NCBI GenBank assembly: GCA_030265395.1
Contig: JARFYF010000056.1
Location: 16,397,065 to 16,461,064, forward strand
DNA: 64,000 nucleotides
DNA from: Rhina ancylostomus
Taxonomy: Eukaryota
Direction: 5' to 3'
Part shown: positions 7,728 through 49,470 of the stretch, piece after piece
Position numbering within the stretch: position 1 is the first letter of the stretch
Layout of the letters: each line of letters starts with the position of its first letter
Position numbers and translations under genes: made by a program
The notes under the pieces: generated by a model
The model's database searches: none
The model's input: only the letters and a program-made list of their open reading frames with translations
Told to the model about the DNA's origin: nothing

Positions 7728-8325
7728 NNNNNNNNNNNNNNNNNNNNNNNNNNNNNNNNNNNNNNNNNNNNNNNNNNNNNNNNNNNNNNNNNNNNNNNNN
7801 NNNNNNNNNTCCCAGACCCTCCCACCCCCCGACCGTGCGTTCGCCCCTTCCTCCCTCCCGGGACGCTCCGACCCCACAGGGTTGCAGTGTGAGGCGGGGA
7901 ACGGGAGGTCCCAGGCCCCCAGGAAGGTGAACCCTGGACCGGATCAGGCGGAGGGCCGGGCTGGGCTGGGACCCTCCCGCCCCCCGGGTTTAGGGTGACC
8001 CCCCCTCCGGGTCCGGGATGCACAACCGGTGACCCGGGCCCGGGACTCGCCTCGGGGTCAGGCCGGCCCGCAGCGGCCCTGCCCGCCCGGGGGTCCACCG
8101 ACAGGACCCAGGGGTCGGCCCGGTCTCCACAGCCGCCCTCCGCTCTACCCAGCCCGGGATATCAGGACGGAGAGGGGCCGAGCGTCCGCTGCCAGGGTCC
8201 CGGGACCTCCCCCCGCCCTCGCTGCTCCGTTTTGTGGGGAATCGGAGGCAAAGATGGCGGCCGGATGCCGCCGGGAACAAAGCGGGAGAAAACCTCGGGA
8301 TCGGAACCACGAAAAGGCCCTTTAC

Positions 8326-8500
8326 CTCAGAAATACCGACCTCGGCTCGTTCTCGGGGCTTCCTCGGCCTCAACTGCAGCAGGAAACGGGGATCGGTGCC
8401 GAACTACAGCCCGATGGCGGCGGATGGAGAAAGATCCGGGGCCTAAGCAAAAGGATTGAAGAGAATCCGACTCCGGCCTCGTAAACCGGGCTCAGAGACT
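8326..8500 (-). other. Putative non-coding first exon of a leftward gene (PRRC2B by synteny, inferred)
   Basis: Minus-strand donor GAG|GTAAAG with exon end at 8326 inside the CpG island; human order is PLPP7 then PRRC2B on the same strand; no PRRC2B coding exon recognised in the window; 5' limit unknown. Confidence 0.45.
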
Positions 8501-8508
8501 GAGCCTCC

Positions 8509-8865
8509 GCGCCGGGGCGGCGCCTGCCGACGGCCCCTGGAACTGCAGGCAGGAAAACGGTGCCGAGGCGGCGCCTGCCGACGGCCCCGGGAACTGCAGG
8601 CAGGGAAACGGCGCCGGGGTGGCACCTGGTGGCAATACAGGGAACTGCGTCCAGGGAAACGGCGCCAAGGCGGCGCCTAGTGGCAACACAGAGAACTGCA
8701 CCAAGGGAAACGGCGCCAAGGCGACGCCTAGTGGCAATACAGGGAACTGCGCCCAGGGAAACGGCGCCAAGGCGGCGCTTAGTGGCAACATAAAGATCTG
8801 CAGCTAAGGAATCAACATTGAGGCGGCACCCGGCGGCTGTACAGAGAGTTCTACCTGGGAAACAG
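8509..8865 (-). repeat. 51-bp GC-rich tandem repeat, block 1 (7 units), CTCF-motif-like
   Basis: Units start at 8509, 8560, 8611, 8662, 8713, 8764, 8815; e.g. gcgccggggtggcacctggtggcaatacagggaactgcgtccagggaaacg. Confidence 0.9.
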
Positions 8866-9449
8866 TAAATGATTTTCTTTAAACTGCAGAGGCAGAAAAT
8901 CTGAAATAAAGACAGAAAAGCTCAGCAGCACAGCCAACATCCGAAAAAAGAAAATCAGAATTAGCGTGTCAGGTCTGAGGCTTTTCGTCAGAACTGAAAA
9001 ACAGAGAAAACAAGTTAGTTTTCAGAAGCAGAGAAGATGGTGACAACAAAGGGAATGTATATGCCCTGCTCTGTATCTCTTGATATATTTCAAAAAGAGA
9101 ACAAAAATAAAGTATCAGAGTAAACTTACATGGAGTGTAAGAACAGACTGTGAAAGATTCTGCAAGTGTGTAAGAAATGTGAAGAAATTTAGGCCCCTTG
9201 GTTGGAAATGAAGCATGAAACCTCTTTGCATCCTCATAACTATTCACGTTCCCACCTGAGTCAGCAGCAGACTCGGAAATGTTACATTTCAACCAAATTG
9301 AATTCTGAACAGTCAGATCTCTATTCCCAGCTCATCACATGTAGAGATCACATTTTTCCTATTCTTTGTTTTCTATGTTAACCAGCATTCAAATCATGCT
9401 AGGATGATACCCCCAAAGCCACGTGCTGTCACTTACTTGAGTAATGGGA

Positions 9450-9920
9450 CCTTATCAATAATCTACTGAAAATCCAAATGCACCACATCCACTGGTTCCC
9501 ATCCACTCCACTAGATACATCCTCAAAGAACTCCAGTATAGTAACTGAACATTATTTCCCTTTCATTCATCCATATTGACTCTGATCAATGATCATCTTA
9601 CTTTCTAAATGTCTGTTTCAGGCTCATTAATTTCTCTATAGTAACACTAATTTCTTTAACTTCCTCATTTGCACTGACATTTTATTCTTCAGTACTTCTG
9701 AAATTTTTTGTATCATTTTCCATGAAGGCAGATACAATGCATCAGTTTAATTCCTCTGCTGTTTGGTCATTCTCCATTAGAAATTATCCCATTTCCACCT
9801 TTAAGGATTCTGCATTTGCTCTTGCTGGTCTTTATTTTTATCAATGCCTACAGAAGCTCTTACCAATTTTTTTGTTGTTGCTAGTTTACTCTTTCTTTAT
9901 CAATTTCTTGATCATCCTTT
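9450..9920 (-). mobile_element. Old CR1 LINE fragment
   Basis: aaatccaaatgcaccacatccactggttc..catcctcaaagaactccagta is the reverse complement of the CR1 LLEFFEDV...VDVVHLDF region. Confidence 0.5.
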
Positions 9921-9960
9921 ACTGAATTCCAAAATGCTCCCACTCCACAGGCCTATCACA

Positions 9961-10061
9961 TCCAGAGAAACAGTGCCAGAGCAGCACCTGTGGTGGTACA
10001 TGGAACTGAACCCAGGGAAACAGCAGCAGGTTGACAATTGGCAGAAGTTCAAGGACCTGCA
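9961..10061 (-). repeat. Isolated degenerate copy/copies of the 51-bp unit
   Basis: tccagagaaacagtgccagagcagcacctgtggtggtacatggaactgaacccagggaaacag aligns to the unit. Confidence 0.7.
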
Positions 10062-10500
10062 ATAAAAAACAAAAGTACTAGAGATCCTCAGCAGGTCAGG
10101 CAGCATCTGTGGAAAGACAACAGAATAAATGTCTCAGGTCAATGACTTTTCATCAGAACTGGAAAAATGAGAAAAACAAAAATGTTACAAGTTGCCAAGA
10201 GCAGACGGGGTGAAGAAAATAATGAGAATGTGGTAGGGTGGAGATCAAGGTTGTCCAGGTGCAGAAATGCCATTGGCACTCACCAAGAGAGGGTGACAAA
10301 TGCATGTAAATCAATGCTGAGCCGTCTGGAGAAGTGCAAGTAGAGAGAGATGAATGAGGGAAGTGGAAAGAAATGAAATGTTGGAACTGTGATGTGCAGG
10401 ACATGGACCAGTCATCAAACTCTGATTCACTCTGCACTGATGCTGCTTAATCTGCTGAGGATTTCTAACATGTTCTGTTTTTATTTCCTTTGTTTATTTT
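10062..10500. mobile_element. Penelope-derived element with inverted terminal copies
   Basis: Left ctcagcaggtcaggcagcatctgtgg; right gatgctgcttaatctgctgagg, the approximate reverse complement. Confidence 0.5.
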
Positions 10501-10529
10501 CTGTAGAGTATTTTTTCTAATTAGAAAGA

Positions 10530-10857
10530 CCTGCATCCAGGGAAACAGCGCCGGAACAGCACCTGCCGGCAATACAGGGAGCTTGCACCCAGGGAAACCG
10601 GCGAAGGCAGGGAACTACACCCGAGGAATCAGCTCAGGGCAGCACCTGCTGGCGGCACAGGGAACTGCACCCGGGGAAACAGCGCCGGGGCGGCACCTGT
10701 TGGCGGCACAGGGAACTGCACCCGGAGAAACAGCGCCGGGGCGGCACCTGCTGGCGGCACAGGGAACTGCACCCGGAGAAACAGCGCCGGGGCGGCACCT
10801 GCTGGTGGCACAGGGAACTGCACCCGGAGAAACTGCGCCGGGGCGGCACCTGGCGGA
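10530..10857 (-). repeat. 51-bp tandem repeat, block 2 (~6 units, last four nearly identical)
   Basis: agcgccggggcggcacctgctggcggcacagggaactgcacccggagaaac repeated; 17-aa periodicity in ORF 10490-10891. Confidence 0.9.
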
Positions 10858-11939
10858 TAAATGGGGAGCTTCAATATGTGGATTGAGGTAAATCTCACCA
10901 TTAAAAATCGCTTAACTTCTGACATCCTTTCACTAGCGGACCGAAAATTCCTCCAATTAATATTTTCGTTTGTTTATAATCGTCCCAGATCTTTATTCCT
11001 CCGAGAGACGCGTAATTCTGCCCTCATGTGCAATCCCCACCTCCATCCCCCAGCCCCGGGGCTTTGCTGCCCAGCCCCTGCCCCAGCGTCGGTTAATTCG
11101 GTTTCCTCCTCTCCAGCTTCTCAACACCAGTTTCTACCCAGAGCCAAGCTGCATCTATGTAAAACCTTGAACTTCTCATAAATGCCTCCAGAACCAAACT
11201 GGGCGTTCTTATTTGCTTTATTGGGGCTTACTATAATGTCAAAGCCAAAACACTACAGATGCGGGAAATAGTTATCAAGTCAGGCAACATCTGTGGAGAA
11301 ATAAACAAAGGTAATGGTTCAGGTATTTGAAGGGCCACCGATCTGAAACAGTGACAGCTCTCTCCAAAGATGCTGTCTCTCTGTTTCTCTTTTATTTTTG
11401 CATAATTTCCTTGCACTTGTATTTTCCTCTGGTAATGAAATCCAGAAACGTGTATTCTTCTATTAATAGAATCATTGGACAAATCTTACTGGTTGTGGCT
11501 GTTCTTCTTTGAACTGATGATAGTCAACTGTGTCTACACAAGCAAGCCCCTGATTTACATGGGCCCTCTGTAGGTCTGAGATATTTTCAACCTGGTGAAT
11601 GGGAGAGGTAGGCAATATCATTTAAAATATTTTATTTCAATCTAATGTTTTTATTGATGTGTAAGTATGTTCACGTGTTTTAATAACTTTAATTTTTCAT
11701 ATAGTTTTTATAATTTCTTCAGTTTTCATAGTTTATAAATGTCCTTGAGTATCAGAGATACTTAAAAAGTTTAAAATTGCTTTGAAGGTTTTAGCAGGAG
11801 ATGATGTTCCAGTCCAGATTATTCCTGGGGCAGGACCTCAGAACTGGCTGCCTCAGGTCTTGCTACCAGTTGGCAAAATCAGCTCTCTGCATCTGGCCCA
11901 GCTTCATTTTTTTCTGAAATTCCATTGATGATGTTTAAG

Positions 11940-12415
11940 GATCAGTGTTAACAGTGATGAAATATTCTATTGTTATTTCCAATTGTTGGCATTTCCTCAG
12001 CAGATATTTGCAGTGTCAGTATTCCCAGTGCTGATACTCTCAGTGTTTGATTTACCAGTGCTGATATGCAATATATCATCATTTTTATTCCCAGTATTAA
12101 TATTGCCAGTGATAAAATTACCAGTGCTGATATTCCCAGTTAGTGTTTCCAGTGCTAACACTCCCAGTTTCAATGTTTCCGATACTGATATCCCTAGTTT
12201 CACTGTTTCTGGTGCTGACACTCCCAGTGATAGTATTTCCAGTGCTGACACTCCCAGTGTCTGTACCTGCAGTGGTGACACTCCCAGTGTCGGTGTTTCC
12301 AGTGGTGACACTCCCAGTGTCAGTGTTTCCAGTGGTGATACTCCCAGTCTCAGTGTCTGCAGCGGTGACACTCCCAGTGACGGTGCTTCCAGTGCCGGTA
12401 CTCACACTGATGATA
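11940..12415. repeat. 30-bp (2x15) minisatellite
   Basis: agtggtgacactcccagtgtcagtgtttcc units, homogeneous at 12240-12400 and degenerate leftwards. Confidence 0.85.
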
Positions 12416-12928
12416 TTCCCCATGGTCTTCGATCCTCTTTCAATGACTTAGTAATTGATACTTTGCTGCTTTTGTCCTGTTTGGGTTCCAGAAATCCATG
12501 AAAACAAACAGTTTGAATGAATTCAAATCTTGTGCAGGCTGCCTCCCATGATCGTTAAATTATACATGGGGCAGGTGAGAGGGGTTCGCACCTGGATTGT
12601 AATTTCAGCCGCCCCATCTTCCCACCCTCCACTAATCTCTGGTTTAGTATTTTCTCTCTGCCTCTTGTAAAATCAGTCACATTTAAACTACAACCAACTG
12701 TCACGCAGGCTGGGCAAAGATTAAATAAACAGAAAGAATATGAGAGGCTGCTGGAAAGTAAAAGCTAATGATATTTGGGAGCCCAGAGGGTTCCACCCCT
12801 CCACTATGCCACAAAATCTACCGTGCATCTTGGAATCAGCTGAGCATTCTGCCTGTGTCCACCAGCCTTTGAAACCTGCCTCAGTGGGGGAGCCCTCAGC
12901 CTCTGTCAGCAGCTCCTGCCCACGGCCC

Positions 12929-25318: not shown

Positions 25319-25705
<387 letters not shown>

Positions 25706-48379: not shown

Positions 48380-49470
48380 CTCTCGTGGGGTTGTTCTCTG
48401 CTTCCGGTGCCAGTGGCAGTTATTACTCCTGGTTTGGGTCTCAGTTCCTGCTCTCAATGTTAATTTCTACTCCCAGTATCAATTACTGCTCCCACTGTCA
48501 GTGGGGTTTACTACTACTATATTTAGTTGCTGCTACCAGTGTCATGTATTGTTCCCAGTATTGGTGTCAGCTACTGCTCTGGGTACCAGTTCCTGATCCT
48601 GGTGCCAAGTACTAATCATATAGTTACCTATTGCTACTGTCATCGGTTATTGTTCCAGGTATCAATGTCAGTTCCTGCTTCCAGTATTTGTGACTACTTC
48701 TATTGATTACTGCTGCTGAATTGGTATCAGTCGGAACTCGCTCAATCAGTTACTGCTCCCAGAGTCAGCTAATGCTCCAGGTGAGAGTTACTGTACCTGG
48801 AGCTGATGTCAGTTGCTATACCTGATGCTGGTTACTGCTCCTGGTGTCAGATCCTGCTCCCAGTACCATTTATGCTCTTCCATTATTTCCTGCTGCCATA
48901 GTTAGTTACTGCTACCAGTATCAGTTATTGTTGGTTATTGCTCCCAGTGTTAGTGTCCCTTACTTCTCCTAGTGTTGGTATTAGTTACTATTCCTGATAT
49001 CAGCAACTTATACCAGTATTGGTTACTGTTCCCAGTATCAACGACTGCTCCTATAGTTAGTTACTGCTATCAGTGTCAGTTACTGTTCCAGGTATTGGTT
49101 ACTGTTCCTGTGTTGGTGCCCACGCAGGAGGAGTGTAAATGGGTGGTTGGCAGAAGGGCCTGGTTCCCTGTTGCATCAATCTACAAGTTACTACTTCCAG
49201 TCATAGTTACTGTTTCCACTGTCAGTTTCCAATCCCAGTATCAATTACTGTCCACAATGTCAGTTGCTGCTCCCAGTGTCAGTTACCACTCGCTGTCAGT
49301 TACTATTCGCAGTATCAATTACTGCTCCCACTGTCATTGTTCTCATTGTCAGTGACTGGTCTTGTTCTGATGTCAGTAACAGCTCCTGCTGTCAGTTACT
49401 ACTACTGGTGTCACTGTCAGTTAGTGCTCCTGGTGTTGGTGTCAGTACCTGCCCCACATCAATGTCAGTT
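48380..49470. repeat. Degenerate 19-bp minisatellite (cagttactgctcccagtgt)
   Basis: Units such as cagttgctgctcccagtgt, cagttactattcgcagtat, caattactgctcccactgt over ~1.1 kb. Confidence 0.8.

Follow-up and report, generated by a model that had tools for sequence, protein, structure and literature searches.

Introduction

Tandem repeats that carry CTCF sites have been described at a few mammalian loci. The closest described case to the array analysed here is DXPas34, at the mouse Tsix promoter, which PMC3149622, in the sections drawn on here, presents as a CpG-rich minisatellite lying in several blocks beside the promoter, with one CTCF site per monomer and with copy number and site number varying among related species. 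Its monomers are 30–34 bp long, its context is rodent X-inactivation, and its CTCF binding is published. DXZ4, FIRRE, and ICCE are also tandem repeats dense in CTCF motifs, conserved in position while their sequence changes; as described in the relevant passages of PMC6125249, they are large repeats with demonstrated occupancy that anchor multi-megabase loops on the inactive X. A different group of sites lies close to promoters. A class of forward CTCF sites immediately upstream of start sites has been described (bioRxiv 10.64898/2026.01.05.696797; bioRxiv 10.1101/2024.11.29.625887). According to the passages of the latter used here, those of housekeeping genes lie directly upstream of CpG-island promoters and often have non-canonical motifs, but they are single, within 200 bp of the start, and known from mouse cells; there, forward sites just upstream of housekeeping starts activate, and those further up damp antisense transcription (bioRxiv 10.1101/2024.11.29.625887). 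Finally, the probe of the IL3 insulator, in the part of PMC12885311 that concerns it, combines an upstream module, an 8-bp linker, and a core with G at position 11 (G11), and its enhancer blocking was tested.

Here, we analyse an array of 14 short units, spread over 2.4 kb of the Rhina ancylostomus genome, that resembles each of these systems in part. It differs from DXPas34 in its 51-bp unit, its full upstream module, a C fixed at core position 11 (C11), an autosomal-type housekeeping gene as neighbour, and sites that are predicted; from DXZ4, FIRRE, and ICCE in its small size and sub-optimal cores; and from the promoter-proximal sites in being multiplied and reaching 2.4 kb upstream of a start whose position is putative. 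With the IL3 probe it shares the module and the linker, but all its units lack G11. Literature searches with exact 12-mers plus CTCF, and on PRRC2B/PLPP7/CTCF, minisatellite/insulator, and elasmobranch topics (the topic searches judged from the lists returned), yielded no paper describing the repeat. We judge the chance to be about even that the array consists of weak, forward, extended CTCF sites in minisatellite form, produced by tandem multiplication at the upstream margin of what is probably the PRRC2B promoter.

A single-locus repeat of 51 bp in three blocks

The window is the whole stretch of DNA that we analysed, 64,000 nucleotides long. TRF reported a period of 51 at 8509-8844 and at 10608-10852. 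We cut minus-strand units from the upstream module, which gave 15 candidates, and built a profile from the 13 ungapped ones. A search of the window and 200 kb of other DNA with this profile resulted in 14 significant copies (E 3.5e-14 to 1.6e-7), all on the minus strand and split 7 + 1 + 6 among three blocks:

8497-8853, minus strand: block 1, seven 51-bp units, forward relative to the gene
8599-8649, minus strand: best unit of block 1, with its core at 8619-8632 and a mismatch at position 11 alone
9960-10010 (approximate limits), minus strand: block 2, a single decayed unit that has lost 1 bp (profile E 2.6e-8), followed by a short tail fragment
10536-10873, minus strand: block 3, six units, with cores at 10639, 10690, 10741, 10792, and 10843

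The fifteenth candidate, at 10011-10061, was not significant (profile E 4.8) and mostly aligns with the adjacent interspersed element, so the middle block is one unit plus a tail and not two units. With this adjustment, the first-pass annotation of the locus was right to count about 14 copies in three blocks and to have every motif pointing left (14/14 units), and the sequences it wrote out for the best units match exactly. The four inner units of block 3 are 80-100% alike and have 9/9 of the upstream module.

Run X1, which may be the source sample, has contigs that match 7986-9032, 10182-10671, and 10776-11164 with zero differences and so reproduce exactly block 1 and the two ends of block 3. 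Because of this agreement, an assembly artefact is an unlikely origin of the repeat. DNA searches of the 2.2-Gb assembly with block 3 and with a 25-letter pattern found matches at this locus alone, counts that are lower bounds. We therefore rejected a dispersed satellite or a transposon-borne repeat, the outcome that the first-pass annotation had named as fatal to its proposal; the position of the array is also kept in three relatives. The array thus consists of head-to-tail units at a single locus, each with one motif orientation.

The array abuts a likely housekeeping promoter

The surroundings of the array contain the following features:

7810-8496: CpG island (GC 0.69, CpG o/e 0.79), interrupted on its left side by a run of N
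8326-8496, minus strand: putative non-coding first exon and start region of a PRRC2B-type gene, with a donor-like GAG/GTAAAG at the exon end, 8326
25322-25705, minus strand: last coding exon of a PAP2-family neighbour (Pfam PAP2 E 2.5e-10), transcribed toward the array

Minus-strand coding exons with the BAT2_N domain of the PRRC2 family are found 4.1 kb beyond the left end of the window. Given these exons and the minus-strand donor-like site at 8326, the CpG island is likely to be the promoter and first exon of a PRRC2-family gene. We take this gene to be PRRC2B and the PAP2-family neighbour to be PLPP7, following the label of the first-pass annotation and the synteny expected for these genes. 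The array begins about 170-190 bp upstream of the putative first-exon donor, its motifs point along the direction of transcription, and some 14 kb separate it from the end of the final PAP2 (PLPP7-type) coding exon. A location abutting the promoter, forward and so far from the PAP2 exon, fits a promoter-proximal site better than an insulator of PLPP7.

Inside the putative first exon, 8374-8391 resembles by eye part of a unit (module and tail), unscored in the profile search. The only other CpG island in 184 kb of DNA is just right of the window, at window-relative positions 65600-67200. About nine copies of a 30-bp tandem repeat occupy 11980-12440, within an open plus-strand frame (11932-12501) of Ser/Thr/Val-rich 10-residue repeats that has a Pfam CTD match below the cut-off; similar CCAGT-rich repeats occur at 49013-49436. 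This 30-bp repeat is probably a low-complexity satellite.

Units resemble an extended CTCF site

The best units have 9/9 of the upstream module (TGCARTNCC-like, the ZF9-11 part of the site), an 8-bp linker, and 13/14 of the core. Across the 14 units, the module scores 9/9 in 6, 8/9 in 4, 7/9 in 2, and 5/9 in 2, and the linker, which should be 8 or 9 bp in an extended site, is 8 bp in all except the decayed unit, where it is 7 bp. Five units have 13/14 cores in which position 11 is the one mismatch, and two of these also have the 9/9 module. The description of the best units in the first-pass annotation, with 13 of 14 core positions matched and the module at about the expected spacing, thus stands, and this spacing is enriched genome-wide: when module and core were searched with linkers of 6-11 bp, 6 of the 9 matches outside the array had the 8-bp linker (p 0.001). 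For G11 cores, 32 matches were in register against 18 over five off-register spacings, i.e., 8.9-fold per spacing. The off-register spacings are the control of this genome pattern search; the backwards pattern (0-1 matches) is a weak control in a CpG-poor genome.

The scan with the core matrix that had been suggested as a check was made with an MA0139.1-like matrix, over 184,000 bases (172,726 not N). Eight of the 14 units passed p<1e-4 on a uniform background and nine on a 41% GC background, and units of the array make up 7 of the 9 best matches across the 184 kb. The two units nearest the promoter reached p ~1e-3 only, and the block 2 unit p ~1e-2. A plus-strand CTCF register was rejected, because it scored lower than the minus strand in all eight units passing p<1e-4.

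We shuffled the unit 400,000 times: no shuffle had the exact module and a core of at least 14 bits in register, and 8 gave looser matches; the product estimate of a chance module-core match is 1e-7. These shuffles and the genome-wide linker enrichment make a chance resemblance to an extended CTCF site unlikely, with the reservation that the motif was picked after the sequence was seen. The matrix columns outside the search pattern contribute 2.6-5.1 bits in eight units, compared with the 3.0 expected for true sites.

Resemblance of this kind could also be a relic. If a CTCF site whose position 11 was already defective seeded a neutral, GC-rich minisatellite, the repeat could be unbound in vivo and kept only by turnover beside the CpG island. 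We regard this as the second most probable account. In its favour, the site columns do not exceed the remainder of the unit significantly in conservation (22 variants over the 23 site columns, 37 over the other 28; p 0.14; 7 of 51 circular shifts give as good a result). The module, on the other hand, is at 8-9/9 in 10 of the 14 units, which speaks against neutrality.

Core position 11 and the strength of binding

None of the 14 cores has G11 (13 C, 1 T), a substitution for the informative G to which the first-pass annotation had itself drawn attention, and 5 of the 7 block-1 units have C9 as a second poor base. In binding assays with human CTCF ZF1-7, changes at position 11 cost 2-fold for T, 7-fold for A, and more than 54-fold for C; the loss with C is attributed to Lys365 of ZF4, which excludes it, in an assay without ZF8-11 (PMC10484683, in the sections consulted). 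Both CTCF-type genes of this genome keep the ZF4 helix, including the lysine. A high-affinity canonical CTCF site should have G, or at least not C, at position 11, and the predicted cores of the array fall short of this. The C11 penalty and the spread of C9 through block 1 are what a neutral minisatellite would lead one to expect.

The same substitution bears on the function first proposed for the array, a strong insulator or loop anchor that would keep PLPP7 enhancers from acting on the housekeeping promoter. Tested insulators typically have tandem sites with the upstream module, in the part of PMC12885311 cited here, the array has the best matrix matches in 184 kb, and it sits between the two genes. 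Yet none of the 14 units has a canonical core, other tandem clusters in this genome reach 18-24 bits with G11 cores where the array has at most 15.9 (uniform background for both), and all its sites face one direction and abut the promoter. A strong anchor does not follow from C11 combined with a kept lysine, and we consider a strong insulator improbable.

A weaker mode of binding would depend on the upstream module. In an affinity study with 276,765 measured sequences, removal of this module costs more than eightfold in affinity on average, and flanks rich in G/C, as those of the array are, reduce affinity (bioRxiv 10.64898/2026.01.05.696797, in the parts used here). The module matters most for intermediate cores and cannot rescue defective ones, according to the passages of PMC10287918 on upstream rescue, which do not vary position 11. 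In the genome outside the array, C11 cores show 9 matches in register vs 11 over five off-register spacings (4.1-fold, p 0.003), or 7 vs 11 when two short-contig matches, one of them a satellite, are left out (p 0.02). With a stricter module, position 11 is G in 4, T in 6, A in 1, and C in 2 of the 13 matches outside the array. A comparison of unselected columns in and off register gave p 0.70 for C11, and likewise p 0.55 for the G11 control, so that this test is powerless. Since C11 cores with the upstream module in register are enriched about 4-fold elsewhere in the genome, an observation that tells against a neutral minisatellite, weak, module-dependent binding of CTCF to the units is plausible.

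Other proteins or a transcript

The least probable account that we weighed, a slight prospect, has the repeat serve another factor (ZEB/Snail-type E-box repressors, some other zinc-finger protein, or CTCFL in testis by itself) or its blocks be exons of a divergent plus-strand transcript. CAGGTG, noted as an E-box at the outset, is present in 7 of the 13 ungapped units; its distribution makes a poor case, with 6/6 units in block 3 but 1/7 in block 1, i.e., it is gone from six of the seven. The genome has a second CTCF-type gene, and shark CTCFL is testis-biased (PMC7471279, in the portion used), but the ZF4 helix of this second gene is identical, which leaves no route to a preference for C11; a CTCF paralogue with altered ZF4 specificity was rejected for this reason. 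A ZNF143/THAP11-type motif was rejected on inspection by eye, since neither the TTCCCA half nor the spacer is present in the unit.

On the plus strand, splice-like AG/GT dinucleotides flank blocks 2 and 3 (~9950, 10523, 10888), which would suit exons. Against this, block 1 lacks an ATG and is interrupted by stops in each of the three plus frames, the indels in relatives are not multiples of three, and neither a Pfam match to the four repeat frames nor an Rfam match was found. A coding repeat of 17 aa per unit was discarded on the same grounds (no ATG and stops in block 1, no Pfam match, frame-breaking indels in relatives). A structured RNA was rejected as well: searches of the window against Rfam at gathering scores, and of 8300-11400 at E<=1, found no match. 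The sites flanking blocks 2 and 3 might conceivably give rise to a spliced upstream antisense RNA.

Insertions and copy number in relatives

The blocks of the array are set apart by copies of a very abundant interspersed element:

8875-9030, plus strand: copy of the abundant interspersed element right after block 1, at which thousands of contigs pile up; it aligns with 10030-10200
10030-10525: insertion that separates block 2 from block 3, with two inverted copies of the same element at its limits, as seen from the inverted repeat, alignments, and depth

The copies at 8875-9030, 10030-10200, and 10400-10525 are decayed, and two of them form the inverted arms. They appear to resemble the Penelope-like terminal repeats of cartilaginous fishes.

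We had 13 runs from five coded organisms, among them no RNA run, which bears on expression in neither direction, and the comparison rests on 5 of these runs. Run X11, from organism E, yielded no record of the array, a result that does not prove its absence there. In organism B (~2-5% different) and in organisms C and D (~4-8%), the promoter, both large blocks, and the insertions are all in place. Hence, the array is older than the insertions and than the splits of organisms B, C, and D. Contigs of organism B are 113 and 89 letters shorter over blocks 1 and 3, which we read as two units fewer in each large block, and also have an 11-nt deletion and a 13-nt duplication in the array. In organism C, one 81-letter contig has a depth of 257 vs ~35 for the flanks; depth is not copy number, and this is a hint that more identical copies may be present. 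The end of block 1 is 8.5% diverged in this organism vs ~7% for the flanks. Across 12 records from three relatives, aligned to one unit, the core changes listed are G/C at position 4, G/A at position 13, one C>T at position 1, and one C>A at position 11; in this small table the changes are few, and the majority are of a kind that CTCF cores tolerate. G11 is absent from all units of the window and from these 12 records, in which differences near piece ends are unlisted. The comparison of orthologous intervals envisaged by the first-pass annotation therefore found a conserved position and a variable copy number in B, C, and D, among relatives that are all within ~8% divergence.

Free gain and loss of units, indels of 11 and 13 nt in organism B, and a block-1 end no less diverged than its flanks in organism C would all be expected of a neutral minisatellite. 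CpG content points the other way. The observed/expected ratio is 0.89 in block 1 and still 0.68 in block 3, 2 kb beyond the island, whereas it is 0.00 at 9961-10061, where the isolated middle unit has lost all its CpGs. Either methylation protection or repeat turnover could explain this contrast.

PRRC2 paralogues and other multiplied sites

The two other BAT2_N loci of the genome each have a CpG island and a single forward core of CTCF type, which lies 464 and 366 bp, respectively, ahead of the putative first donor; the best block-1 unit of the array is at a comparable 309 bp.

L021:4562 (G000:C68): forward core of one paralogue, on the upstream margin of its CpG island
L025:8231 (G000:C63): forward core of the other paralogue, on the upstream margin of its CpG island

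Local dinucleotide shuffles gave p 0.0105 and 0.0525 for these cores (combined 0.005); at the second locus the test covered 500 letters, excluding a run of N. Reverse-strand cores at the paralogue promoters were not significant by shuffle, and the paralogue first exons have no significant homology (scores 42 and 39 vs shuffle maxima of 48 and 60). These positions suggest an old promoter-proximal forward site that would have been multiplied at the present locus.

A genome search for same-strand core pairs 22-50 bp apart resulted in 11 matches at 10 loci, including this array. Of the nine other loci, two have same-strand cores within short tandem repeats, five cores in L101 and three in L108, most of them G11. 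The clusters of canonical cores are:

L101:1408-1574 (G000:C29): same-strand canonical cores
L108:1472-1646 (G000:C104): same-strand canonical cores
L104:1311-1600 (G000:C74): same-strand canonical cores
L103:1515-1554 (G000:C71): same-strand canonical cores

Two of these four sit within tandem repeats, of 28-59 and 39 bp. Because the L101 and L108 clusters lie in tandem repeats, multiplication of predicted CTCF sites is recurrent in this genome. Among the tandem clusters seen, the array is the longest and has the best upstream module, but its cores are weaker. Separately, an independent mini-tandem of 35-37 bp with 2-3 units, each with the module, an 8-bp linker, and a C11-type core, is found in a GC-rich patch at L046:1000-1082 (G000:C7:38394693).

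Discussion

If the array is a minisatellite of weak forward CTCF sites, its history and action may be pictured as follows. One forward extended CTCF site would have been tandemly multiplied into a single-locus 51-bp minisatellite. Later insertions would have split it, the isolated middle unit decaying while repeat turnover kept the tandem blocks alike. With ~38 bp of finger contacts per unit in a period of 51 bp, adjacent units could be occupied together, and the contacts of ZF9-11 with the upstream module would partly offset the loss from C11. Several weak sites might then sum to a CTCF mark at the promoter edge, which would support the housekeeping promoter through a forward site near the start and damp upstream antisense transcription; block 3 could act as a modest anchor facing left.

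A bolder version, which we hold doubtful, is that an ancient forward CTCF site, single at the other two PRRC2 promoters, became a copy-number rheostat here. Its cores would be held at C11, with binding set by fingers 9-11 and by copy number, and it would tune PRRC2B output between species. Were this true, the array would test naturally whether the upstream module can rescue a base excluded by ZF4, and would count among the CTCF-site minisatellites that recur in this genome.

The array makes a biochemical question directly testable: can ZF9-11 contacts rescue a C11 core that ZF1-7 reject? If the units are unbound, the array would be a VNTR of the ordinary kind beside a promoter, and would caution against matrix scores, which overcall such repeats. 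If they are bound, it would be a natural array of weak, module-dependent CTCF sites at a housekeeping promoter, with a copy number that varies among close species.
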